Program-made: the position numbers and the translations under genes
Notes under the pieces: generated by a model
Database searches by the model: none
Told to the model about the DNA's origin: nothing
The model's input: only the letters and a program-made list of their open reading frames with translations
Shown: positions 3,756-32,300 of the stretch, piece by piece
Layout of the letters: the number at the start of each line of letters is the position of its first letter
Numbering within the stretch: the stretch's first letter is position 1
Assembly (NCBI GenBank): GCA_002423385.1
Contig: DIVV01000044.1
Coordinates: forward strand, 1 to 46,275
Direction of reading: 5' to 3'
From: a bacterium UBP16_UBA6123
GTDB lineage: Bacteria; Muiribacteriota; UBA9980
Length of the DNA stretch: 46,275 bases

Positions 3756-3826
3756 AGGGCTATAGTTCAATGGTAGAATAGCGGTCTCCAAAACCGTTGA
3801 TGGCGGTTCAAATCCGTCTGGCCCTG
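3756..3826 (+). tRNA. trnW: tRNA-Trp (anticodon CCA)
   Basis: AGGGCUAUAGUUCAAUGGUAGAAUAGCGGUCUCCAAAACCG...GGUUCAAAUCCGUCUGGCCCUG has a 7-bp acceptor stem, a TpsiC arm GGCGG/CCGTC, an anticodon loop cuCCAaa and no encoded CCA. It occupies the classic position between rpmG and secE. Confidence 0.85.
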
Positions 3827-10844: not shown

Positions 10845-12071
10845 CTATTTGCTTTTTTCGATAAGTAAAGCGGTAATGCGCGAATGTCCCTCCCGCCGGG
10901 AAAGCGATAAAGGCGTATTGCCGTGAAGCGTTACAACGTTAATATCGGCGCCGGAATCTATTAAAAGTTTAGCCGAATCATAACTGCCGATGTAAGCGGC
11001 CCAGGTCAGCGCGGTGTCGCCGTAGCAATCTTTAGCGTTAATATCGACGCCTTTTTCGATTAATAATTTTAATATATCGACGCTTCCGTGTTTTACGGCA
11101 AACGTCGCCGGCTTCATTTTTTCGTTATTCTCGTGCCTGTAATTAGCGCCATTTTCAAGCAGCAGCCTGACGATTCCGGTGAAACGGCTTTCTATGGCAT
11201 AAAATAGAGCGGTATTTCCGGCCTGATCGATTATTTCCATATCGGCGCCTTTTTCCAATAAAAGTTTTACCAGATCGGCATAGCCGCTTTTAGCCGAAAG
11301 CATAAGAGCCGTTTTCGAAGATGAATCGATGGAATTAAGTTTGAACCGGCCGCTATTTATCGAATCTATGGCGCTTTTCGGGTCGCCGGCTTTAATAAGC
11401 TGAAAAATATAATCGCCGGAAACCGTTCCGACTTTTTTAACTTTTTTAACTCCTTTGCCATCCGTATAAGAAGACTCTGAAGTTTCTTCGTTTTTCGATA
11501 TATAAATGCCTATGGCTATCAAAAACAGCATCATGACAAAACCGTATTTTATTATGGTCATAATCAGCGAAAATAAAGCGCCCAATAAATTTTTATTCTG
11601 ACGCTCCGGCGAAGTATAAATGTAGTTATCATTATCCGGCTTCAACTTTTTATTTTTTCTCACGGTTACCACGCCGCCGCGGCCGGCGGAAAGCAGCGCC
11701 GATATTTTTTTTTGAGAATATAACTCGGCGAGTTCGGCGGCGGCAAGCCCGGCGTTATCTTTTAAATGAACATTTGCGCCATTTTTTATAAGCGCCGAAG
11801 CGCTATCCGCGTTGGCGTAAGAAATGGCGTAGATAAGCGCGCTGTTTTTATTTTCATCGACTTTATCTATCGCGGCGTTTTCATTGATAAGAAATTCGAC
11901 GGTTTCGTAAGTTCCCGCCATAGCGGCTATCATTAAAATGGTAATGCCGCTTTTATCAGACCAGTTAACTAAAGACGGATCGGAGGATATGATTTTTTCA
12001 ACTCCACCTTTATCGCCGGATATCGCCGCCGCGATAAGCCTGTCATGTATAAAATTTTTATTGTTGCTCAT
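10845..12071 (-). CDS. Ankyrin-repeat protein with a central transmembrane helix
   Basis: Ankyrin repeats occur both N-terminal (DKSGITILMIAAMAGTYETVEFLINENAAID) and C-terminal (KTALMLSAKSGYADLVKLLLEKGADMEIIDQAGNTALFYAI, GDTALTWAAYIGSYDSAKLLIDSGADIN) to a hydrophobic segment (LLGALFSLIMTIIKYGFVMMLFLIAIGIYI). There is no N-terminal signal peptide. Confidence 0.8.
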   Translation of the reverse strand: MSNNKNFIHDRLIAAAISGDKGGVEKIISSDPSLVNWSDKSGITILMIAAMAGTYETVEFLINENAAIDKVDENKNSALIYAISYANADSASALIKNGANVHLKDNAGLAAAELAELYSQKKISALLSAGRGGVVTVRKNKKLKPDNDNYIYTSPERQNKNLLGALFSLIMTIIKYGFVMMLFLIAIGIYISKNEETSESSYTDGKGVKKVKKVGTVSGDYIFQLIKAGDPKSAIDSINSGRFKLNSIDSSSKTALMLSAKSGYADLVKLLLEKGADMEIIDQAGNTALFYAIESRFTGIVRLLLENGANYRHENNEKMKPATFAVKHGSVDILKLLIEKGVDINAKDCYGDTALTWAAYIGSYDSAKLLIDSGADINVVTLHGNTPLSLSRREGHSRITALLIEKSK

Positions 12072-12183
12072 AAATCACCTTTAATGAATTTATTACGCTG
12101 CTAAATTTTTTTTACAATCATTAATACCGAGCATTATTTTCGCGCATTATTTTCACGCGCTCAAATTTTTACCGCCGGATATA

Positions 12184-13200
12184 TCATGATAAAGCCGAAA
12201 GAAGCTCATCGACGACCCAGCCGTTATCCACGCAAACAAAACTCCACACTTCAGCGTATTCAACCGGCACGTATTCATCGCCTTTAACGACAGAACCGCC
12301 GGATTCGTTTACAGTATAGTCTATCATCGAAAATTTAATAAGCGCTTTCATATACCCGGCACCTGAAACGTCGTCGTTTTTAATCTCTATTATTTTAACG
12401 TCGATAATTTCAACATTCGCAATTATATTGCGCTCGCCCTTTGCCGTTATATCTTCTATGCGGCGCTGCTGCCTGTAGAAAAATCGACGGCTCATATATT
12501 TTTCGGCGCTCGATAATTCCCTTTCGCTCCATGAGCGCTGCACACACTTAAAAACTTCTTTAACGCGCTCGTATAACCGATATAAATCCTGCGTGCCGAT
12601 TTCAGACTGTTTCGCGCCGCTCGTAAGCCCGCTCGCGCCCGCCGGCGAAGATAAAGCGGAAACTGAGGAAAACGAAGCATCCGGGACTAATAAAGAAGAG
12701 GTAACTGAAATTGGAGATAAATTAAAAGAAGATGCCGAAACCGTAGTTAAAGAAGAATTGAGTCTATTTTTAGTTGATAATTTAATATTTAAATAGTGAA
12801 CAATGCCCATGATTGAAATAATTACAAAGGTGCAGAATAAAATTATTGCCGAAGCCAGATGAGCGTGCAGCGAATTGTTACCGCTTGCATACGAAGATTT
12901 ATATCTGGCGGCGCCCGATTTAGCGAACGGCCGCTTTCTGGCCTCCGTCTTATCTTTATAACCATAGCCGAAATCAAGCCCGCCGCCGTAATCAGAAACC
13001 GAATGAACGGCCTGCGATGAGGAACTGACGCTTTTAGCCTGACGCGCATAGGCGCTTTGCGTAAAATAAATAAATAAAACGGCAAAGATAAATGCCGCGG
13101 CCAAAAATGAAAAAAAGGTAGTTTTAAAGCCTTTTTTTAATTTATTTATTACGCAATTAAAGTGATTTATATCTTCGATCTTAACCGTATGAGTCGACAT
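12184..13200 (-). CDS. Membrane protein with a C-terminal Tim44-like domain
   Basis: Two TM helices, Ser-rich low-complexity linkers and a C-terminal region of about 140 aa (LYRLYERVKEVFK...RRFFYRQQRRIEDITAKGERNIIANVEII...EVWSFVCVDNGWVVDEL) resemble Tim44-like domain proteins. The call rests on motif recognition only. Confidence 0.5.
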   Translation of the reverse strand: MSTHTVKIEDINHFNCVINKLKKGFKTTFFSFLAAAFIFAVLFIYFTQSAYARQAKSVSSSSQAVHSVSDYGGGLDFGYGYKDKTEARKRPFAKSGAARYKSSYASGNNSLHAHLASAIILFCTFVIISIMGIVHYLNIKLSTKNRLNSSLTTVSASSFNLSPISVTSSLLVPDASFSSVSALSSPAGASGLTSGAKQSEIGTQDLYRLYERVKEVFKCVQRSWSERELSSAEKYMSRRFFYRQQRRIEDITAKGERNIIANVEIIDVKIIEIKNDDVSGAGYMKALIKFSMIDYTVNESGGSVVKGDEYVPVEYAEVWSFVCVDNGWVVDELLSALS

Positions 13201-13464: not shown

Positions 13465-14874
13465 TTGAGAAGAGTAGCTAAAAGTATTGCAACGGTTGTT
13501 ATTAGCGCATCATTAATGTTTAACGGCGGCGGAATTCATGCGGAAGAAATAAAAAACGAACGCATGAATAAAATAGATGTTCAAAAAACCCTCGATGAAA
13601 TCAGGGCTAAAGTAAATAAAAAAAGCGCTGAAATCAATATAAGCGCGTGCGCTGCCGATCAGCCATGCTCCGTTGAAAAAACTCAACAAACCGTAAAACC
13701 TATTAAAAAAGTAAAAGATTCACAAGATTCAGAATTTAAAAGCGAAGAATGCCTTCAGGCCGTTAAAGAAAAATCTTCGACCACGGCTAAAACTATAGCA
13801 AGTCATGAAGAAAAAATCCAGTTGGCCCAGGCCGCTCCCTTAGAAGTAAAAAAAATGGAAACAGCTCCCGCGCCTCCAACAGCGCCGGCGCCTGCTGCTG
13901 CACCGTCGCCCGTAGTTATTTCCGGCTACACACAGTTGTCGCACACGGTCAGCGACGTGCCGGCGGACAGCCACAGCTTTAACGTGGCAAGGACCAGATT
14001 CGTTTTCAAAAGAAAATTAGACGAAGACCTCAGCTTTTTTTCGCAGTTCAATATTACCGGCAATAACGCCGACTCTTCTCAAATGACGCTTACCGATTTA
14101 TTCGTGCAATATAACCTGGATAAATCACAAAATTTAATGCTCGGACAGTTCGTTGTTCCGGGTAACTATGAAGCCACAATTTCTCCGCGTGATTTGTATA
14201 TGATAAATTACGGACAACACATAATAAACACCGAACACGAAAATAGAGGCAACGACCTGCGCGACGTAGGTATAACCTACAATTACCGCAAGCCTGGCGA
14301 CAACTGGGGATTATCCATAGCGGCAGTTAACGGCGAAGGCATAAATACCCGCAACGATTCAACCGATTCAAAAACCATAATGGCGCGCCTGGACCTTGAA
14401 GCCGACAAGGCCCTCAAATTAGGCCTTTACGCCTCCGACGGCAAGCGCTTTAAAGCCGCATCCACGGCCGCTCAGGTAGCTTTTTACGGCGCAGACGGAG
14501 CCGCTACTACCGCAAAATCATTCGATAGAAAACGCGCCGGTTTTGACGCGCGCTATAAAAAAGATAAATTGACGCTTCAGGGCGTTTATGAAATTTTGGA
14601 AACCGGCCTCGCAGGCCGCGCCGGAAATCTCAAAGGTAAAGGTATGTTCGTTCAGGCCGGATATTTCGTTATGCCTAAACTTGAATTAACCTATAAACAC
14701 GACGCATTTACCCCTAATAAAGACAATACCGTTACCAAACGCACCATCAACGCCGCCGGTTTTAACTGGTTCATTAAAAAAGGCGCGAAATTACAGATGG
14801 TTTACCAGAAACAAAAAGAAACACCCGAAGTTAAAAACGACCGCCTGGATACGCTCGTTACAGTGGAATTCTAA
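13465..14874 (+). CDS. Outer-membrane beta-barrel protein, porin-like (possibly phosphate-selective porin O/P family)
   Basis: A TTG start with the strong RBS GGAGG is followed by a signal peptide (MRRVAKSIATVVISASLMFNGGGIHA). The product has a Pro/Ala-rich linker, alternating amphipathic strands and a C-terminal ...VTVEF ending in Phe. Confidence 0.6.
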   Translation: MRRVAKSIATVVISASLMFNGGGIHAEEIKNERMNKIDVQKTLDEIRAKVNKKSAEINISACAADQPCSVEKTQQTVKPIKKVKDSQDSEFKSEECLQAVKEKSSTTAKTIASHEEKIQLAQAAPLEVKKMETAPAPPTAPAPAAAPSPVVISGYTQLSHTVSDVPADSHSFNVARTRFVFKRKLDEDLSFFSQFNITGNNADSSQMTLTDLFVQYNLDKSQNLMLGQFVVPGNYEATISPRDLYMINYGQHIINTEHENRGNDLRDVGITYNYRKPGDNWGLSIAAVNGEGINTRNDSTDSKTIMARLDLEADKALKLGLYASDGKRFKAASTAAQVAFYGADGAATTAKSFDRKRAGFDARYKKDKLTLQGVYEILETGLAGRAGNLKGKGMFVQAGYFVMPKLELTYKHDAFTPNKDNTVTKRTINAAGFNWFIKKGAKLQMVYQKQKETPEVKNDRLDTLVTVEF

Positions 14875-14976
14875 TATGATAATAATCCGGTTAATTTGAT
14901 TTATTTTGATTTAACTTGATTTAATTTAATCGAGCTGACTTGAGCCAATTAAATTTAACTTAATATTTAATTTTTG

Positions 14977-15019
14977 AAGGGGAGGGAGAAAGGGTTAGCA
15001 ACCCTTTCTCCCTCCCCTT
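14977..15019. repeat. Perfect hairpin with 20-bp arms and a 3-nt loop (AAGGGGAGGGAGAAAGGGTT-agc-AACCCTTTCTCCCTCCCCTT)
   Basis: The hairpin was read directly; its purine arm and pyrimidine arm are exactly complementary. No T-tract follows, so it is not a classic terminator. Confidence 0.85.
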
Positions 15020-15090
15020 TACCCCTCCCTCTTTCGGCAAATTACCTGACGCTTTATCGCTGGTTTGTCGATAGCTTTTTCTGTCGTGGC

Positions 15091-15190
15091 TTTAATTTCT
15101 TTTTCTTTCTCTTTTTTACTTTTACTCTTTCTTTTTTGTTTCTTTATTGCTTTCTTGCCTTTTACTCATTTTTCTGCCAGCTTGCTTGTT
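15091..15190 (+). repeat. Polypyrimidine (about 85% C/T) tract on the + strand
   Basis: tttaatttctttttctttctcttttttacttttactctttcttttttgtttctttattgctttcttgccttttactcatttttctgcc was read directly from the sequence. Confidence 0.8.
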
Positions 15191-15191
15191 T

Positions 15192-15218
15192 GCATTTGCG
15201 TGCGGCGCACGCAAATGC
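15192..15218. repeat. Perfect 27-nt palindrome (13-bp arms, 1-nt centre): gcatttgcgtgcg-g-cgcacgcaaatgc
   Basis: Read directly; the motif is GC-rich within AT-rich surrounding DNA. Confidence 0.8.
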
Positions 15219-15493
15219 GCAGCGATAATGGCACTACCGTAACTATGCCTTGCGGCTCGCGGGAAAAACTAATGTAAATCGGTTTTGATAATTGCACCGT
15301 TAAAAATTATCGCAAAAATATTTAATATCGTAAAAGATAAAATTAAGTTTTGTCGAGGGCTTTTAAAATGGCGACTAATTAATTTTGTTTATCATTAACA
15401 AGGTTTATAATGCTTTTGTATAATAAAAGTTGTTATTTTTTAATGCCTTATCGTGAGCATCAATATTAAGTTCCGGCAGTGCGTAAATAGAAC

Positions 15494-15520
15494 GCCTTCG
15501 CGCGCGCCGCGCGCGAAGGC
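15494..15520. repeat. Perfect 27-nt palindrome (13-bp arms, 1-nt centre) with an alternating CG core: gccttcgcgcgcg-c-cgcgcgcgaaggc
   Basis: Read directly; its architecture matches the palindrome at 15192-15218. Confidence 0.8.
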
Positions 15521-15559
15521 AAAACTAACAAAAGACGTGAAAAAGGTTTATGGCATGAC

Positions 15560-15590
15560 AGAAAGAGAAGAAAGAGAAGAAAGAGAAAAG
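15560..15590 (+). repeat. Pure-purine run containing three tandem copies of GAAAGAGAA
   Basis: The sequence is a-gaaagagaa-gaaagagaa-gaaagagaa-aag, read directly. Confidence 0.8.
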
Positions 15591-15695
15591 CAAGGACTTT
15601 GTTTATGAGCTATTAAAAAACTTCGAAGCCGGCAGGAAATGCCGCTTGAAATAAAAAGGCTATGATAATAGACTTTTTATATTCCGGGAGAGATT

Positions 15696-15757
15696 GGGGG
15701 GCTATGGGGGGCAAGAGAGGGTCTTCGACCCTTTCTTCCCCCCCGTCCCGTTCCCGC
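15696..15757. repeat. Imperfect G/A-rich hairpin related to the one at 14977-15019 (GGGGGG..GGGGGGCAAGAGAGGGTC-ttc-GACCCTTTCTTCCCCCCC...)
   Basis: The core stem gagagggtc/gaccctttc has one G-T wobble and is extended by a G6/C7 pairing with a bulge. It shares the core agggtY...RaccctttcYYccc with hairpin A. Confidence 0.7.
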
Positions 15758-15789
15758 GTTGAAAGTATGGTTACAAATATAAGTTTTTC

Positions 15790-15818
15790 TTGACTTATTA
15801 TATATATTTTTATATACT
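15790..15818 (+). promoter_or_regulatory. Putative sigma70 promoter for the aminotransferase gene (TTGACT -17- TATACT)
   Basis: The sequence is cTTGACTtattatatatatttttaTATACTtaag, which would give a 5' UTR of about 80 nt. Confidence 0.4.
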
Positions 15819-15906
15819 TAAGACAAAAAAATAAAATAGTAATTTTGTATTCAAGTATTTAAATTTTATTTATAATGCTTACATAGAGCAATTAGGGGTG
15901 TCAAAG

Positions 15907-17253
15907 ATGAAATATGAAAAAATTGTTGTAAAAACCGAACTTCCGGGTCCGATTTCAAAGAAGATAATCGGCATCGATGAAAAGTTCGTTTCGCACTCGT
16001 ATACCAGAGATTACGGCATGGTAGCCAAACGCGGTGAAGGCGCATTTGTCGAAGATCCCGACGGTAACGTATTTCTCGATTTTTCAGCCGGAATAGCCGT
16101 TTGCTCGACCGGCCATTGCCACCCCGAAATTGTCGAGGTTATTCGCAAACAGTCTCAAGAATTAATACACATGTCCGGCACCGATTTTTACTATGAAACT
16201 CAAGTCATGCTGGCTGAAAAAATCTCGAAAATAGTGCCTATAGAAAATTCCAGCAGCGATAATCCCGTAATGTCGTTTTTCGGCAATTCCGGCGCGGAAG
16301 CCATCGAAGCTGTCATTAAAATCGCTCGCAGCCACACGCACCGTTCCCGCATGCTCGCCTTTATAGGCGCATTTCATGGCCGTACGATGGGCGCGCTTTC
16401 ACTTAACGGCTCTAAAATACGCCATCACGAACATTTTCACCCGCTAGTTCCCGGCGTCGTTCATGCGCCTTACGCTTATTGCAAACGCTGCCCTTATGGC
16501 GCGCATTATCCCGGTTGCAAGCTCGAATGTTTTGATTTTATTAAAAAAACGCTTATGACAAAGATAATATCGCCTGAAGATATATCCTGCGTTATAATGG
16601 AAGCCGTTCAGGGCGAAGGCGGATACGTAGTTCCGCCGGTTGAATTCGTAAAGGCGATGCGCGATCTGACTCGCGAACACGGAATATTGCTCGCTATCGA
16701 TGAAGTGCAGTCCGGCATGGGCCGCACCGGAAAAATGTTCGCCATCGAGCATTTCGGCGTTAAACCCGATATAATGGCCATAGCAAAGGGTATCGCCTCC
16801 GGCCTTCCGCTGTCGATAACCTGCGCCAGCCGCGAAGTAATGAACTGGAAACCTGGCGCTCACGCCTCCACTTTCGGCGGCAATCCAGTCGCCTGCGCCG
16901 CCGCTAATAAAACCATCGAGCTTCTCGAAAACGGTATTCTCGAAAATGTAAATGCTACCGGCGCATATTTAAAATCGAAACTCGAGGCCATGCAGAATAA
17001 ATATGAATTTATAGGCGACGTCCGCGGCCTCGGTCTCATGCTGGCCATCGAAATCGTCGATAACAAAAAAGATTTTAATCCCGACGCGGAGCTTCGCGAC
17101 AGAATACTTCACGCGGCTTTCGCTAAAGGCCTTATAATTTTAGGCTGCGGCCCTAACAGCGTCAGATTCGCGCCGCCGCTTATAGTTACTAAAGTCCACA
17201 TCGATATGGTGTGCGAAGTTTTAGAAAGCGTTTTCGAAGGCCTGAAAAAATAA
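15907..17253 (+). CDS. Class III PLP-dependent aminotransferase (GabT/ArgD/ornithine aminotransferase family)
   Basis: The product has a GNSGAEAIEAVIKIAR motif, the DEVQSGMGRTGKMFA PLP-lysine region and a TFGGNPVACAAA motif. The ATG at 15907 follows the RBS GGGGTG. The ORF-track GTG at 15898 overlaps that RBS. Confidence 0.9.
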   Translation: MKYEKIVVKTELPGPISKKIIGIDEKFVSHSYTRDYGMVAKRGEGAFVEDPDGNVFLDFSAGIAVCSTGHCHPEIVEVIRKQSQELIHMSGTDFYYETQVMLAEKISKIVPIENSSSDNPVMSFFGNSGAEAIEAVIKIARSHTHRSRMLAFIGAFHGRTMGALSLNGSKIRHHEHFHPLVPGVVHAPYAYCKRCPYGAHYPGCKLECFDFIKKTLMTKIISPEDISCVIMEAVQGEGGYVVPPVEFVKAMRDLTREHGILLAIDEVQSGMGRTGKMFAIEHFGVKPDIMAIAKGIASGLPLSITCASREVMNWKPGAHASTFGGNPVACAAANKTIELLENGILENVNATGAYLKSKLEAMQNKYEFIGDVRGLGLMLAIEIVDNKKDFNPDAELRDRILHAAFAKGLIILGCGPNSVRFAPPLIVTKVHIDMVCEVLESVFEGLKK

Positions 17254-26883: not shown

Positions 26884-28689
26884 ATGGGTACTTCGCATAT
26901 AAGAAACTTTTCGATCATAGCGCATATCGATCACGGTAAATCGACTCTCGCTGATAGAATTTTAGAAATTACCGGCGCCGTGGCGAAACGCGATATGTCC
27001 AATCAGCTTCTGGATTCGATGGACCTTGAGCGCGAGCGCGGCATAACCATAAAAGCCTCCGCGGTACGCTTCGATTATAAGGCCCTGTCGGGTGAAACCT
27101 ATCTTATGAACCTGATAGACACGCCCGGTCACGTCGATTTTACTTACGAAGTGAGCCGCGCGCTGGCCGCATGCGAAGGAGCTCTTTTAGTCGTTGACGC
27201 CACTCAGGGAGTCGAGGCCCAGACGGTCGCGAATATGTACCTGGCTCTTGAAAATAACCTCGAAATAATTCCGGTTATTAATAAAATCGATTTACCCTCC
27301 GCTATGGCGGATCATGTCGAAGAAGAAATAGTCAAGGTTCTCGGCATCGATCACATTAAACCGCCGAAAATATCAGCTAAAGAAGGAAAAAATATAGGCG
27401 AGGTTCTCGAAAGCATCGTCGCTCACGTGCCCGCGCCGAAGGATAATTCTCATCTTCCTCTGAGGGCGCTGGTTTTCGATTCTTTTTACGATTCGTATAA
27501 AGGCGTTATAGCCTATATAAGGGTATTCGACGGCGAGATCAAAAAAGGCCAGAGAATTAAATTCATGGCTAATAATAAAGAACACGAGGTTATGGAAACG
27601 GGTATGCTGATGCCGAAAATGACCGAAGTGGCTTCACTTTCGAGCGGCCATGTCGGTTACGTCGCGGCTAACGTAAAAACCGTAAGCGATTTAAGAATCG
27701 GCGACACCATCACTTCGGCTGAAAACCCCGCCCTGGTGGCTTTAGCGGGTTATAAAGACAGTAAACCTATGGTTTTTTGCGGAGTATATCCGGTAGATAA
27801 TACTAAATACGAAGTGCTCAGGGAAGCTCTTAATAAATATAAACTTAACGATTGTTCGGTAGTTTTTGAACCCGAAAATTCGGTGGCGCTCGGATTCGGC
27901 TTCCGTTGCGGCTTTCTGGGGCTTTTACATATGGACGTTTTTCAGGAGAGAATCGAAAGGGAATACGGGTTGGAAGTCATTACTACCGCGCCTTCCGTTA
28001 AATATCGCGTCATCACTAAAGCGGGCGCGGAGTTTTTTTTCGACAACCCGGCTAAAATGCCCGATCCGACTGAAATTGAAAGAACTTACGAGCCGTTTAT
28101 TAAAGCTAGTATTTTCACGCCGAAAGATTACGTCGGCACTATAATGGACCTTATGCGCGAACGCCGCGGCACTTATTTAAGCATGGATTACATCGACGAT
28201 AAAAGAGTGACGCTGCACTATGAAATGCCGCTGGCTGAAATGGTAATAGATTTTTATGATAAACTCAAATCCAGAACTAAAGGCTATGCATCGCTGGATT
28301 ACGAGCTTGGCGAATATAAGGAGTCTGATGTCGTTAAAATCGATATCCTTCTTAATAACGAGCCTATCGACGCGCTTTCTTTTATAACTCATAAAGATTT
28401 CGCTTATCAGCGTTCTAAAATATTATGCGAAAAATTAAAAAAATCGATACCGCGCCAGCTTTTTGTTATTCCGATACAGGGCGCTATCGGCAATAAAATA
28501 ATATCGCGCGAGACCATCGGCGCTCTCAGAAAGGACGTTACCGCTAAATGCTATGGCGGCGACATTTCCCGTAAAAGAAAACTTCTCGAAAAACAGAAGG
28601 AAGGCAAAAAGCGGATGAAAATGGTCGGCACGGTAGAAATCCCGCAGGAGGCGTTTATGTCGCTTCTGCAGATAGGCGAAGAAGAATAA
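26884..28689 (+). CDS. lepA: Elongation factor 4 (LepA)
   Basis: [22 protein letters not shown] and NKIDL motifs are present, along with the LepA-specific C-terminal domain ([15 protein letters not shown]). Confidence 0.97.
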
Positions 28690-28736
28690 TCGTGTAAAGA
28701 TCACCGGTTTATAAAATTTTAGTCGGGGGTAATGAT

Positions 28737-29018
28737 ATGGACGGTCAGGATAGGGTAGTAGTCAGCGTCATAGGCGTCAACCGTGTCGGCATAGTGTCGA
28801 AAATATCGACGGTAGTGGCGGAATTGAACGCGAGCATTCTCGATATATCGCAGACGCTTATAGGCGATTTGTTTTCGATGATAATGATTATCGACGTGGC
28901 AAAATCGAATTTAGAATTTAAATTTTTACGTGAAAAACTCGAAACCGCCGGTAATGAAATGGGCGTTAAAGCTATCGTTCTTCACGAAAATACTTTCAGA
29001 TATATGCACAGGGTTTAG
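28737..29018 (+). CDS. ACT-domain protein (UPF0237 family)
   Basis: The 93-aa product VVVSVIGVNRVGIVSKISTVVAELNASILDISQT shows the ACT beta-alpha-beta-beta-alpha-beta pattern. Confidence 0.7.
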   Translation: MDGQDRVVVSVIGVNRVGIVSKISTVVAELNASILDISQTLIGDLFSMIMIIDVAKSNLEFKFLREKLETAGNEMGVKAIVLHENTFRYMHRV

Positions 29019-29237
29019 TGATTTTGAAAAAAATATAAAAAGTGGACGAACAAAAATAGAGTGGAGTGGAGTGGAATAAAATAAAATAAAAAATAATTGA
29101 TAAATTGATTATTTTCTGTTAAAATGATTCTGTCATTAACAAGCAGTCGTTAAAAATAAATAATAAGCGGTTTTGCTTGCGGGTGTTCTACATTTTGATA
29201 GTGAGTGCCGTTTGTTAAAAAAATCTATCCGGTTTCG

Positions 29238-29266
29238 TTAAATTTGTAAATATTTACCGGTATAAT
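29238..29266 (+). promoter_or_regulatory. Putative sigma70-type promoter upstream of cheA (TTAAAT -17- TATAAT)
   Basis: The sequence is cgTTAAATttgtaaatatttaccggTATAATg, about 80 nt upstream of the cheA ATG. Confidence 0.35.
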
Positions 29267-29347
29267 GTTTTTATATAGAGCCGGATCGATTGCATTCGGT
29301 CGATATTGTTGGAATATAAAGATTTTAATTGTGGGCGGCATTAAAAT

Positions 29348-32300
29348 ATGGAAAATAATCAAATAAATCTTGATGGCAGAACGGATACGGCGAAAAAATT
29401 TTTAAACGATTCGCTTTCTTTATTGATTCAGGCTGATATTTCGTCAGCCGATTTTTCGACTATTATTACCCGGATTAAATTAAATATCGACGATGCGCTC
29501 AAACTTTCTTCGTCTTCTTCCGAAACCGACCTGCTGTCGGTTTCTTTAAATTCGGCCAGTTCGATATTGTTTGAGACCGATCCAGAAATAATTAAAGTGT
29601 TAGTGGAGCTGCTTGAAAGCTCGTTAGCCAAAGCTATCGAGCATTTCGACGCTCTCGAAATCGCGGCGGACGGGCCGTCGCAGGCTGAACCTGCTAAAAC
29701 TGAAACGGTGAGAGATAAAAGTGCCGAGCGCGAAATATTGCTCACTTTTATTGACGAATGCGGCGAGCATATACAGGCGGCTGAAGAATCGCTTTTAAAA
29801 CTCGAAGAAGACCCTTCACGCCTGGATTCGCTTAACGACGTATTTCGTTCATTCCATACGATAAAAGGTTCGGCGCATTTTTTAAATTTAAAAAACATAT
29901 CTGAATTTGCGCATGAGGCCGAGAATTTTTTGAGTGAAATACGCGAAGGTAAAGTTAAATTCAGTAAAAGCAATCTCGAACTGGCTTTTCGCGCGATCGA
30001 CGAGTTAAAAATGCTTGTGGCCGGAGTTAAAGCGGATGGCAGTGATTCTAAGAGTCCCGATTATCGAAGGCTGATGACGGCCTTTAAAAAAGGCGGAGCG
30101 CATGAGGCGCCGGCAAGCGTCGAAGAAGTCGCGGCGGTTCCTCTTACAGCCGAAGGCCTGGCTAAAAAAGTAATAAGCGACCTGGAACATATATCTAATG
30201 CCTTGATGCAGGCTGAAACCGACGATCTTAAAACTTTTATAAATCTTAAAAATTCTCTGAACAGCGTTGCGAAGGTCTGCACCGACGAAGTAGCCGTTTC
30301 GGTAATTGAAGCGGCTGGTTTTCAGCTCGATGAAATTATTACAAGCACGGCAGATGACTGCTTTCAAATAGTCAGCGTTGCAAGCGCGATGATTGAATCC
30401 TGCATAACCCATCTTGAAAGCCGAATTTCCGGCCAAAAATCTAAAGCAGCCGCGCCGGCGGTCAGGACCGCTGTTTCCAGAGCAGTCAAACCGGCCGCGG
30501 AAAAAATCGAAAAAACCGTCATTGAACCCGCGGCGGAGGTTGTTATAGCCGAATCCCTGCCGGCAATCGAAGTCAGCTTCGAATTCGAACCCGATAGTAT
30601 CGATCGTGAAATGTTTTTGACTTTTATCGATGAATGCCTCGAACATATCCAGGCGTCTGAAGAAGCGCTTTTAAACTTAGAAAACAATCTCGAAGATATA
30701 ACTTCCATAAACACGGTTTTCAGGGCGTTTCATACAGTAAAAGGCTCTTCGTCGTTTCTGGGTCTCGCGGGAGTTACGGAGCTGGCACATCACGCCGAAT
30801 CGCTTTTAGTTAAAATACGCGATAAAGAAATACCATATAATAAAAGCTTCGCCGATATCTGTCTCAGATCGGTCGATATATTAAAAACGCTTATCGTTTC
30901 ACTTAAAATCGGCGATTATAAAAAGCCCGATAATTACGACGATCTGTTAAGGCTTTTAATGAGCCCTGAATTAAAAAAAGGAATCGTGCCGCAGTTTGCG
31001 GCAGCGTCGAAAGTTAAGCCGGGTTCTTCGGCTGCCACGGCGTCTCCAGCCGCCGTCGTTTCTTTAAAATCGCCGGTTGAATCATTTGCGGTCGCGCCGG
31101 CCGTTAAAATAACCGAAACCGCTCCGCGGTTAAATGTTCCGGCCGCCGCCGCGCAAGTTAAATCCGCCGTGGAGGCGCCTGAAGCAAAAAAAACGCCCGT
31201 TTCTACAAACGATGAAGAAGAATCAACGGTCCGCGTTAAAATTGCGCGAATCGATAAGCTTATCGATATGGTCGGAGAGCTGGTTATTTCACATTCGATG
31301 GTCGCGCAGGATGAGGCCATGGTAAACGGAGCCAACCATATACTGGCAAAAAAAGTAATGCAGTCAGGTAAAATTATTCGCGAATTGCAGGATTTAAGCA
31401 TGACTATGCGTATGATACCCTTCCGCGCAACTTTTCAAAAAATGGCCCGCGTGGTGCGCGATATTTCCGGTAAAAACGGCAAAGAAATAGATTTTATAAC
31501 TTCCGGTAAAGAAACGGAAGTTGACCGTAATCTTGTAGATATAATTAACGACGCGCTTATGCACATGGTAAGAAACTCCGTAGATCACGGTATCGAGCCG
31601 CCCGAAGTAAGAAAGCAGGCGGGCAAGCCTGAAAAAGGCCGCGTAGTGCTTTCGGCGTTTCATTCAGGCGGCAATGTCGTAATCGAAATAAAAGACGACG
31701 GCAAGGGGCTGGATCGTCCCAAAATCGTTAAAAAAGCTATTGAAAAGGGCCTGATTAAATCCGATGAAACTATGAGCGATTCAGAAGTTTTCAATCTCGT
31801 CTTTCTTCCCGGATTTTCTACGGCGGATCAGATTACCGATATATCCGGCCGCGGCGTCGGTATGGACGTGGTTAAAACATCCATAGAATCCTTGCGCGGG
31901 CGTATCGATATAACCTCGATGCCCGGTAACGGCTGTTGCTTTTCGATCAAAGTGCCGCTAACTCTCGCCGTTACCGATGGTATGCTTATAAAGGTGGGAT
32001 CGCAGCGTTATATAATACCTACCGCCAATATTTATCTTACTTTCAGGCCTAAAATCGAAGATATATTTACAATGGCCGGCCGCGGCGAAATGGTAATGCT
32101 TCACCAGAAGATGATACCGGTTTTCAGGCTTCATAAAATTTTCAACATATCCAATGCGATTGAAAATCCATGGGATTCTTTATTCGTAGTTATCGACGAC
32201 GGCGATAATAAGCACTGCGCGGTACTGGTAGACGAACTTCTCGGCCAGCAGCAGATAGTGGCTAAACCGCTCGGTAACGCGCTCGGTAAAATCGAAGGCA

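Follow-up and report, generated by a model that had tools for sequence, protein, structure and literature searches.

The intergenic island between the porin and aminotransferase genes of the window (the whole 46,275-nt stretch that was analyzed) is, in our reading, one copy of a dispersed, multi-copy, non-coding composite DNA repeat that is confined to a clade of Candidatus Wallbacteria relatives, acts through its structure, and spreads at the DNA level. We give this reading a probability of about 70%. The repeat is previously undescribed, and the clade is a small group of Wallbacteria-like bacteria. The original prediction had singled out the gap for an abnormal density of structure-forming motifs and as a candidate for something undescribed; it was right on both points, and every structural feature that it listed is found at the positions given, far above chance. 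Among the explanations that it offered, a genome-specific repeat is the one borne out, as related copies lie beside unrelated genes and orthologous sites are empty, truncated or internally deleted.

The gap extends from the porin stop at 14874 to the aminotransferase start at ATG 15907, which opens a 448-aa product and is called identically in three independent assemblies. Its non-coding character stands as predicted, and its length is revised from 1023 nt, measured to an in-frame GTG at 15898 that had been taken as the start, to 1032 nt. The median spacer in the window is 77.5 nt, and the two other large gaps are occupied by small genes or tRNA. The features of the gap, with window coordinates and strand, are as follows.

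14875 to 14971, plus strand: porin 3′ flank, AT-rich, outside the element and assigned to the porin-side (P) locus.
14972 to 15035, minus strand (outward): L terminus, from hairpin, mirror, triplex-finder and G-quadruplex computations.
15037 to 15098, minus strand: L outer conserved block, including the inverted repeat TATCG (15055-15059) N9 CGATA (15069-15073).
15075 to 15175, no strand assigned: L-arm variable region, 86% pyrimidine on the plus strand and purine-rich outward, overlapping the L outer block at 15075-15098.
15192 to 15218, no strand assigned: L-arm GC palindrome GCATTTGCGTGCG-G-CGCACGCAAATGC, predicted DNA dG −15.2 kcal/mol, z = −3.8.
15219 to 15300, minus strand: L leader block, conserved in the L arms of all copies, with an invariant CG..AGC.
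15301 to 15424, no strand assigned: AT-rich centre, with promoter-like sites facing both directions.
15425 to 15493, plus strand: R leader block, conserved in R arms.
15494 to 15520, no strand assigned: R-arm GC palindrome GCCTTCGCGCGCG-C-CGCGCGCGAAGGC, predicted DNA dG −18.2 kcal/mol, z = −4.1.
15521 to 15609, plus strand: A-rich linker (AAAACTAACAAAA) followed by a purine-rich variable region, from tandem-repeat and composition analysis.
15614 to 15685, plus strand: R outer conserved block, with a hairpin at ~15621-15649, then a terminator-like hairpin and a T-rich run.
15686 to 15746, plus strand (outward): R terminus, from hairpin, triad, G-quadruplex and triplex-finder computations.
15784 to 15906, plus strand: the aminotransferase's own promoter and 5′UTR, outside the element and conserved in L004-L007.

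The edges of the gap belong to the neighboring genes. On the porin side, the flank carries a TTAATTTGAT tandem repeat (×3.7 at 14891-14927, TRF); this segment is identical in L083 and missing from L001, whose identity to the window starts at ~14969. The promoter-like element reported at the 3′ end is present (−35 TTGACT at 15790-15795 and −10 TATACT at 15813-15818, with 17-nt spacing) but belongs to the aminotransferase and not to the island element. It precedes a 5′UTR of ~90 nt with the Shine-Dalgarno sequence AGGGG. This stretch, 15784-15906, is the only part of the gap conserved in L004-L007 (77-80%), where it sits 40-190 nt past the upstream gene. Relatives whose aminotransferase is 84-91% identical have just 150-300 nt upstream of that gene and share only the same stretch with the window. 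The element is a lineage-specific insertion upstream of the aminotransferase, and the genes beside it, which retain promoters of their own, are not under its control.

The element is ~0.8 kb long in the window, and other copies span ~0.45-0.95 kb. Two diverged types of arm, L and R, make it up; they stand head to head and always occur together. Moving outward from the AT-rich centre, each arm consists of a conserved leader, a GC palindrome with 13-bp arms, hypervariable purine-rich tandem repeats, and a terminus made of a purine mirror repeat and an 18-22-bp hairpin, such that the ends of the element coincide exactly with the two G/A-rich hairpins. The two halves of the island are colinear in inverted orientation, with a score of 138 versus 52.6 ± 12.9 for shuffles. 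Ten arms could be aligned, with 63-80% identity within a type (69-80% among L arms) and 48-59% between L and R. No further copies were found inside the 46-kb window.

Several related uncultured populations carry copies of the element, at four or more loci, and we recovered at least about eight copies from about six populations. Copy A, on the aminotransferase side, is represented by L001/L204, L002/L205 and L206, and copy P, on the porin side, by L083; further copies are L172, L185, L208, L215 and L212. (A second gene-free gap in L204, at 1480-2665, is a tRNA cluster and not an element.) A metagenome scan with a loose degenerate palindrome pattern gave, among the 120 matches listed, 118 chance matches in GC-rich genomes and two real ones, L172 and L185. 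The search for homology in relatives that had been proposed at the outset yields element copies in related genomes, with compensatory changes in the palindrome. The genes next to the copies are unrelated to one another: porin and nuoF, a 698-aa gene and the aminotransferase, a DegT-like gene, and those of one more locus. A single site may be full, internally deleted, reduced to a remnant or empty. Between porin and nuoF, the element is full in L208 and L215, internally deleted in L212 (which lacks the R palindrome and R body) and reduced to a solo L end in L214, and the site is empty, with a canonical terminator, in L209, L210 and L211. Alternatively, the occupation of this site in several populations could reflect long-term retention for a host function.

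Copies cluster by genome and not by locus: the R arms of copies A and P in sp1 are 80% identical, versus 66% for the P-copy R arms of sp1 and sp2, and pairwise similarity among copies is mosaic. This distribution would fit spread and homogenization at the DNA level, by transposition in trans and/or gene conversion between copies. No transposase, recombinase or RAYT gene was found near any copy or anywhere in the window. We infer mobility from distribution because none of the recovered copies has coding capacity, and no target-site duplication could be read from the flanks of the copies, since these are AT-rich and diverged.

The copy in the window is a hybrid of the two paralogous copies, with the P/A crossover inside the left hairpin at 14998-15035. 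In relatives, on nuoF contigs from neighboring populations, the porin gene is followed by nuoF and not by the aminotransferase, and for this reason the porin–aminotransferase adjacency, which appears in no relative and in no other recovered assembly of the species, is probably a product of misassembly or recombination. Users of the 46-kb contig should bear in mind that it is probably chimeric or rearranged at the element. Contigs start or end inside the hairpins in L083, L206, L212, L213 and L214, and perfect palindromes of the element type terminate contigs in at least five public assemblies. The hybrid left junction and these breaks might raise the suspicion that the whole island is an assembly artefact. 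That is barely plausible, however, because independent assemblies of other samples (L001/L204 from ENA, L002/L205 from JGI, L206 from Logan) reproduce 14969-15906 with 99.7-100% identity and complete elements lie inside long contigs, such as the 74.7-kb contig of L215; suspicion is limited to the porin-side join.

The two perfect 27-nt GC palindromes of identical architecture were correctly recognized from the start, each with 13-bp arms around a 1-nt centre. Together with the left terminal hairpin, they are the only perfect hairpins with arms of at least 11 nt in the 46 kb. Across the first ten palindrome copies, all 130 pairs are Watson-Crick, with no G·T, and 7 of the 13 positions have changed on both sides, a pattern of covariation. 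Imperfect palindromes are seen in the L arms of L212 (one mismatch) and L215 (split by a ~45-nt insert). In an RNAalifold analysis of eight arms, the palindrome is the only conserved structure.

Perfect two-fold symmetric sites upstream of a gene, within an unusually long gap, are also what would be expected of a regulatory region for the aminotransferase and/or the porin, with dimeric regulators on the palindromes, and the original prediction had raised such a hub. We regard this explanation as scarcely credible, however, because the compensatory substitutions preserve the shape of the palindrome and not a recognition sequence, and because relatives retain the aminotransferase promoter and 5′UTR with no element upstream. 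The element also lies beside unrelated genes, and the porin–aminotransferase arrangement itself is missing from the relatives and from the other assemblies recovered for the species.

The interior of the element combines conserved and highly variable blocks. The L outer block is 93% identical between copies A and P and 91% between P and the L208 copy (within longer matches spanning the L terminus), occurs also in L207, L212, L214 and L215, and is non-coding, because its frame is broken between copies. The ~100-nt polypyrimidine tract of the prediction corresponds to the L-arm variable region (15075-15175), which contains degenerate 6-, 11- and 20-nt tandem repeats; the same position is filled differently in other copies, with a 12-mer (L172), a 10-mer (L185) or CTCCTCTTTT runs (L208). 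The R leader and palindrome of copies A and P are 79.6% identical over a 167-nt match. Beyond them, the triple tandem purine 9-mer is confirmed as AGAAAGAGA ×3.1 (15560-15587, 100% matches), and its position is taken by ATAGATG ×8.3 in P and by GAGAAA-type runs in L208. The R outer block, which includes an A/T-flanked terminator-like hairpin (ATAAAAAGGCTAT / ATAGACTTTTTAT at 15651-15680) ahead of the T-rich run, matches the L208 copy at 92.5% identity over 67 nt; L172 has it too, whereas L185 lacks it and P lacks most of it.

A decayed protein-coding gene, or a pair of small-protein genes, might be suspected from a 51-aa ORF called by one annotation pipeline (L002 213-368, equivalent to window 15453-15608) and from a 52-codon stop-free minus-strand frame over the purine tract, with a 22-codon ATG ORF in the same frame in P. 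We consider this almost certainly wrong. The 15453-15608 ORF has a stop in P and its GTG is GTA in L172 and L185; in L208, a 1-nt indel shifts the frame. Mismatches by codon position (6/13/11, 1/4/4 and 12/6/9) have no periodicity, cross-copy ORF similarities detected by blastp cross reading frames, and no Shine-Dalgarno sequence is present in a genome with strong ones. With premature stops, lost starts and frameshifts separating the ORFs of different copies, the claim that the gap holds no credible ORF is upheld.

The palindromes flank the AT-rich centre, local GC/AT skew flips sign there, and the centre of the P copy is a 15-nt ×10.3 tandem array that resembles iterons. These features recall a replication or partition cis site, remnant or functional, from an integrated small replicon, with the centre as an unwinding element accompanied by iterons. 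Such an origin has very little chance of being correct, however. DnaA boxes are at chance level in the window (40 versus 33 ± 6 expected), with one, carrying one mismatch, in the island; no rep, par, integrase or initiator gene lies nearby; sensitive blastn gave no similarity to plasmid or phage records, and two pattern scans of viral contigs gave no matches. The iteron-like array is confined to one copy, and the several copies per genome all lie in core chromosomal contexts.

Each terminus of the element consists, reading outward, of a third-strand purine segment, a loop, a purine arm, a second loop and a pyrimidine arm. In the L terminus, the purine segment R1 GAAAGAGGGAGGGG (15022-15035) is followed by the loop TAAA and hairpin A (14977-15019), which is the perfect 20-bp-arm hairpin of the original prediction (14977-14996 / 15000-15019, 20/20 pairs, 3-nt loop) and has a predicted DNA dG of −24.2 kcal/mol (z = −5.8). 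In the R terminus, R1 GGGAGAGATTGGGGGG (15686-15701) and the loop CTAT lead into hairpin B (15706-15744), rightly described as related to A, from which it is 727 nt away and with which it shares 74% identity. Among its 18 pairs are one G·T and one C·C, and it is computed to be 7 kcal/mol more stable on the outward strand. In R-end hairpins as a group, the outward strand has 2-4 G·T and is favored by 5-7 kcal/mol, and the L001 SNP and the L212 palindrome mismatch are likewise wobbles on the outward strand. Homology between paralogous copies starts at TTTT(T)GAA just beyond the L hairpin and stops 3 nt past the C-run of the R terminus.

Both termini carry a predicted class I purine-motif intrastrand-triplex motif and a G-quadruplex motif, and all three G-quadruplex motifs of the 46-kb window lie at the two termini, one of them at 15010-15029 on the minus strand. 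By definition (PMC4666352), an intrastrand triplex motif has three blocks in a row on a single strand, able to form G·G-C, A·A-T or T·A-T triads in a class I or class II layout; its stem is 8 or longer and its loops are 1-6 long. Five termini fall within this sequence definition, with 14-16 allowed triads of 15-16 and loops of 3-4 nt, and permutations of the third strand match them in at most 4 of 5000 cases. The L terminus has 14/14 mirror positions and 14/16 allowed triads (reached by 3/5000 permutations), and the R terminus has 15/16 allowed triads (1/5000). Stems of 14-16 triads exceed any in the scrambled-genome controls of a bacterial survey (PMC4666352). Applied to the window, L001-L012 and all 121 loci L083-L203, our triplex finder gave matches only at element ends and in a single low-complexity, AT-only stretch of L001. 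Departures from mirror symmetry are mostly T opposite A, itself an allowed triad. The third strand itself seems to have evolved under purifying selection, in that it has taken only substitutions permitted by reverse-Hoogsteen rules. The L-end hairpin is also identical between populations whose porin is only 74% identical, which suggests a sequence-level constraint on it beyond selfish persistence. It is possible, though on balance we doubt it, that the termini are selected class I DNA triplexes of 14-16 triads that would serve as structure-specific ends for copying, homogenizing or recombining a new composite element, one route being the folding of the outward strand when transcription or replication displaces it; the E. 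coli TM_ECO triplex forms in vitro on single strands and was undetected in vivo (PMC4666352).

The original prediction had suggested a single large structured RNA; this is not supported for the island as a whole, with no Rfam match, RNAalifold structure confined to the palindrome and a hypervariable interior, and could hold for sub-parts. Another reading takes the element to be primarily a cassette of two divergently transcribed small non-coding RNA genes, each with its promoter in the centre, a GC hairpin at the 5′ end, a purine-rich body and a 3′ hairpin; the usefulness of the RNAs would explain why it was duplicated to several loci. In copy A, the plus strand of the centre agrees with the sigma-70 consensus at 11/12 positions (TTAACA-18-TATAAT, 15395-15424), and weaker minus-strand sites lie at 15356-15327 and 15334-15306; an extended −10 (TGATATAAT / TGGTATAAT) lies at the homologous place in P and L208, and an AATAA box is semi-conserved across all arms. 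Three R arms have a terminator-like hairpin and T-run, the outward strands are purine-loaded, the G·U wobbles of the terminal hairpins favor the outward strand, and the putative transcripts have more stable predicted folds than shuffled sequences (z = −4.3 and −6.5).

We nevertheless judge this cassette to be unlikely. In a consensus scan, the promoter-like sites of the centre are not conserved at homologous positions of other copies, including L172, L185 and P. The sole structure supported by covariation, the palindrome, has no G·U in 130 pairs, the body consists of different tandem repeats in every copy, and L212 has neither the R palindrome nor the R body. U-tracts are missing from the terminal hairpins, though the clade uses canonical terminators. 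Rfam 15 at gathering score matched only the tRNA at 3756-3826 in the window, and permissive searches gave sub-threshold generic hairpin (miRNA model) matches for the island and none for five other copies. The mirror-repeat rule of the ends, moreover, agrees with a purine-motif triplex, a structure that RNA cannot adopt (PMC4666352). Outward transcription may occur from some copies as a property that is not conserved.

For the composite DNA repeat, we propose that the conserved modules act as DNA structures and not as sequence-specific protein sites or one RNA. The outward single strand could fold into the terminal hairpin plus a third strand in reverse-Hoogsteen pairing (G·G-C, A·A-T, T·A-T); a G-quadruplex is the alternative fold. 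The internal 13-bp GC palindromes could extrude as hairpins or cruciforms. Recombination, deletion and assembly breaks would concentrate at the element through these structures, and such events are seen directly, in the P/A crossover of the window inside the left hairpin and in the deletion derivatives of other populations. If the termini are indeed selected triplex ends, the element would be a built-in, programmable recombination and deletion hotspot in Wallbacteria genomes. The full, deleted, solo-end and empty states, together with the crossover, make it a useful locus for the study of non-B-DNA instability in an uncultured phylum. The family also offers a test case for bacterial triplex repeats, which have been catalogued and still await an agreed function. 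It adds comparative evidence that was lacking in earlier work, in that the third strand tracks the purine arm across diverged copies and the exceptions are allowed T·A-T triads. Compensatory pairing in the hairpin combined with third-strand tracking would make a testable case that triplex geometry, and not the hairpin alone, is maintained.

Several known systems share features with the element. The pilE locus of Neisseria, a system associated with Cahoon and Seifert, reportedly uses a G-quadruplex and an sRNA as a recombination initiator, at a single locus within a dedicated antigenic-variation system. Like the element, it has a G-quadruplex-forming tract beside a promoter that transcribes through it, and a recombination event at the structure. 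The element differs in having several dispersed copies and no target gene family, and its link to transcription is putative. REP and BIME sequences are imperfect palindromes of 20-40 nt, present in hundreds of copies with a cognate RAYT gene. Palindromes of REP size are present in the element, and no Y1 transposase was found in the 46 kb or in the flanks of copies. REP/RAYT systems and the hairpin ends of IS200/IS605 elements, including PATEs, resemble the element in their hairpin boundaries and in a G·T strand asymmetry that suggests recognition of a folded single strand. In contrast to these systems, the element has no RAYT or TnpA(Y1) gene that we could find and no GTAG/CTAC-type tetranucleotide, and whereas IS200/IS605 ends are asymmetric and on one strand, those of the element are mirror images on opposite strands.

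MITEs and composite repeats such as Correia/NEMIS, ERIC, BOX and BIME are likewise non-coding, intergenic, multi-copy and modular, with inverted-repeat ends, presence/absence polymorphism and use as recombination substrates, and some have outward promoters or terminator-like hairpins. Like a MITE, the element is non-coding and multi-copy with insertion polymorphism at orthologous sites. MITEs also share terminal inverted repeats with an autonomous IS and have target-site duplications; the ends of the element are inverted-repeat-like (74% identity), with homology stopping there. No target-site duplication or parent IS was identified, the latter in the window, the flanks of other copies, or plasmid, phage and viral collections. 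Typical MITEs are under 200-300 bp and have simple TIRs, whereas the element is larger, its ends are self-folding hairpins with mirror repeats, and each of its long arms (~150-400 nt) belongs to one of two fixed types.

The closest known analogue is the BoxC/PIT/TM_ECO triplex repeat of E. coli (Hoyne et al. 2000; Holder et al. 2015, PMC4666352). Intrastrand-triplex repeats lie between genes in multiple copies, at times as inverted pairs of two types, and are tied to rearrangement; work on those of E. coli detected neither a promoter or terminator signal nor a triplex in vivo (PMC4666352). Shared with the element are three consecutive blocks of one strand (pyrimidine arm, purine arm, purine third strand); G-rich GGGNGAGGG-like arms; a strictly intergenic, multi-copy distribution with no linked transposase; and occasional inverted pairs of two distinct types with local rearrangement or deletion. 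The TM_ECO consensus (CCCTCNCCC N3-6 GGGNGAGGG N3 GGGNGAGGG) has no match in the window. Whereas TM_ECO is class II with 9 triads, the element is class I, with the third strand at the 5′ end and 14-16 triads per terminus, and its two motifs stand ~0.45-0.85 kb apart, bracketing leaders, 13-bp GC palindromes and tandem repeats. Finally, TM_ECO is a repeat of Proteobacteria, whereas the host of the element belongs to a candidate phylum.

The gap between the Porin_O_P porin and the class III aminotransferase extends from the porin stop codon at 14874 to an ATG at 15907, a start that we adopted because three other assemblies call the same 448-aa product. At 1032 nt it is, as the original prediction held, unusually long: no spacer in the window exceeds it, the median being 77.5 nt, and the remaining large gaps hold rpmG, a tRNA, secE or a small ORF. 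The absence of a credible ORF was also upheld, a coding check of the island copies having ruled out coding sequence, and each of the motifs first noted was recovered:

Motifs in the gap
14977-15019: hairpin A, in the L terminus (outward strand minus), 20 perfect pairs
15075-15175: polypyrimidine tract, 86% pyrimidine
15192-15218 and 15494-15520: 27-nt GC palindromes
15560-15587: tandem purine 9-mer, x3.1
15706-15744: hairpin B, in the R terminus (outward strand plus)
15790-15818: promoter-like site at the 3' end of the gap

Hairpin A and the two palindromes are the only perfect hairpins with arms of at least 11 nt in the 46 kb, and none comparable was found in ≈100 kb of relatives' loci. Separately, past the porin stop but ahead of the element, 14891-14927 is a tandem repeat of a 10-nt unit (TTAATTTGAT, x3.7), and a related repeat (AACTTGATTT) occupies the equivalent position in two relatives' loci (L207 and L215). 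In another gap, of 658 nt (28689-29348), there is a small ORF that had not been called (MDGQDRVVVSVIGVNRVGIV...) and that by eye resembles an ACT domain, together with a run of GAGTG x3 and, after it, AAAATAAAAT repeats.

The window corresponds to an entire NCBI contig of 46,275 nt that carries core genes (fusA, tuf, nusG, rplKAJL, a chemotaxis operon, der, plsY, gpsA, and lepA) and no transposase or recombinase genes. Among named genomes, the nearest to it are Candidatus Wallbacteria MAGs (GWC2_49_35 at 90% amino-acid identity), a label that the NuoF homologs of the same clade likewise carry. Comparison with plasmid, phage, and viral collections ruled out such an origin for the island, and a replication origin was ruled out as well. 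Adjoining the porin, 10845-13200 encodes a many-ankyrin-repeat protein and a Tim44-like-domain protein, a pair whose synteny is kept across the clade (L207, L209, and L215).

In relatives with an 84-91% identical aminotransferase, only 150-300 nt separate the upstream gene from the start codon, and the sole part of the gap conserved there is 15784-15906, which comprises a TTGACT-17-TATACT promoter and a ≈90-nt 5'UTR; the element proper therefore spans ≈14972-15746. On this comparison, the island is an insertion rather than an expanded regulatory region. Between species (L004-L007, the relatives' aminotransferase loci), DNA conservation of the promoter and 5'UTR is 77-80%, the conserved leader is longer in L008 and L009, and Rfam returned no match for it; this stretch could be a regulatory leader.

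The element consists of two head-to-head arms, L and R. When 14965-15360 is reverse-complemented, its colinear alignment with 15361-15785 scores 138, compared with 52.6 ± 12.9 for block shuffles that keep local composition. Ten arms from five elements align with one another, and each arm has the following order.

Arm modules, innermost to outermost
1: leader with an AATAA box and invariant CG..AGC
2: GC palindrome, 13-bp arms
3: A-rich linker
4: hypervariable purine-rich stretch, its tandem repeats differing from copy to copy
5: arm-specific outer block
6: terminus

The arms fall into separate L and R clusters (63-80% identity within a type versus 48-59% between types), from which it follows that the L+R pair is the unit of propagation and the ancestral form. 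In some R arms a further GC palindrome, the third (AAAACTGCGCGCGC..GCGCGCGCAGTTTT), borders the R terminus on its inner side (L172 487-513; L208 ≈2845-2875).

Of the alternatives first offered, the genome-specific repeat element is the one borne out, the island being one copy of a dispersed family:

Copies and site states in relatives and other assemblies
L172, L185: additional copies
L208, L215: complete copies between porin and nuoF
L212: internally deleted copy
L214: solo L-end remnant, in the MAG of the closest relative
L209, L210, L211: empty sites with ordinary U-tract terminators

Occupancy is thus polymorphic and deletion derivatives exist; one end of the L212 deletion lies within the third R-arm palindrome. 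Homology between paralogous copies ends within a few bases beyond the terminal hairpins. The copies group by genome, not by locus, and their pairwise similarity is mosaic, a pattern that indicates gene conversion or turnover.

Each terminus reads R1, loop, R2, loop, Y on the outward strand, where pairing of R2 with Y makes the hairpin and R1 mirrors R2, the layout of the class I triplexes of Holder et al. (PMC4666352). Allowed purine-motif triads account for 14-16 of 15-16 positions in five termini, a count attained by permuted R1 in 0-4 of 5000 trials, and departures of R1 from mirror symmetry are mostly T opposite A, itself an allowed T·A-T triad. Purine-motif triplexes are reported not to form in RNA, and scrambled genomes to hold no triplex stems >11 (Holder et al., PMC4666352). 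A finder built for this layout, run on the window, L001-L012, and L083-L203, matched only element ends plus one AT-only stretch in L001. The same terminal G-runs supply the window's only three G4 motifs. Compensatory changes occur in the terminal hairpins of L207/L215 and L212. The R-end hairpins have 2-4 G·T pairs when read on the outward strand, where they are computed to be 5-7 kcal/mol more stable, which suggests that the outward single strand is the one that folds.

In the first ten palindrome copies, all 130 of 130 pairs are Watson-Crick and none is G·T, although 7 of 13 positions have changed on both sides between copies. Of two copies found later, L212-L has one mismatch (G·T on the outward strand) and L215-L is interrupted by a ≈45-nt insert. 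Because shape is conserved while sequence varies, sequence-specific dimeric regulators are disfavored, and the proposed regulatory hub found no support. As a weaker argument, the lack of G·U would place the constraint at the DNA rather than the RNA level. Nor was the suggested large structured non-coding RNA supported, as the island matches no known RNA family. Copy A, the aminotransferase-side copy, has strong outward promoters, which are not conserved at homologous positions in other copies, and a terminator-like hairpin is present in three R arms only; small RNA expression from some copies is possible but, for these reasons, is not the common denominator.

Two contigs of sample ERZ27315036 reveal how the island's copy was composed. 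On the aminotransferase contig (L001/L204), the upstream neighbor is not the porin but a 698-aa gene, the ortholog of the relatives' aminotransferase-upstream gene, and identity to the window starts at ≈14969. On the porin contig (L083), the match ends at 15098 and a second, diverged copy P follows. In a three-way alignment, the window is of the P type up to and including 14997 and of the A type from 15036 onward, placing the crossover in 38 nt common to both copies (14998-15035), within hairpin A and its third-strand segment. The porin adjoins the nuo operon in relatives, being followed by nuoF in four related populations; since neither nuoF nor the 698-aa protein is encoded on the window, we regard the porin-aminotransferase adjacency as a product of misassembly or of recombination/deletion. 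The 46,275-nt contig is probably chimeric or rearranged at 14998-15035, where a hybrid of two element copies joins the two neighborhoods. The sequence starts or stops within or at the terminal hairpins in at least five public contigs (the L083 end and the L206, L212, L213, and L214 starts), which suggests palindrome-caused assembly breaks. The center of copy P (L083 6894-7047) holds an iteron-like 15-nt x10.3 array (TCAAGTCATATTAAG; 45-nt super-period) that is not present in other copies. In the segment skipped by the window's contig, L204 1600-2600 (ENA ERZ27315036 k141_100327) is a gene-free 1.2-kb gap upstream of a HEAT-repeat gene in which, by eye, about nine tRNA genes are clustered.

The element is a dispersed, non-coding, two-armed repeat bounded by hairpin/mirror-repeat modules, with a crossover inside one terminal structure. 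We propose that it spreads and is homogenized at the DNA level and that its ends and palindromes may work by folding, as hairpin/cruciform, triplex, or G4 DNA, which would make it recombinogenic and deletion-prone. The island is genuine and unusual, and it is best placed with the bacterial interspersed structured repeats. Its nearest analog is the BoxC/PIT/TM_ECO class, to which it does not belong by sequence. The reported proneness of the Escherichia coli TM_ECO repeats to recombination and deletion agrees with the behavior proposed here.
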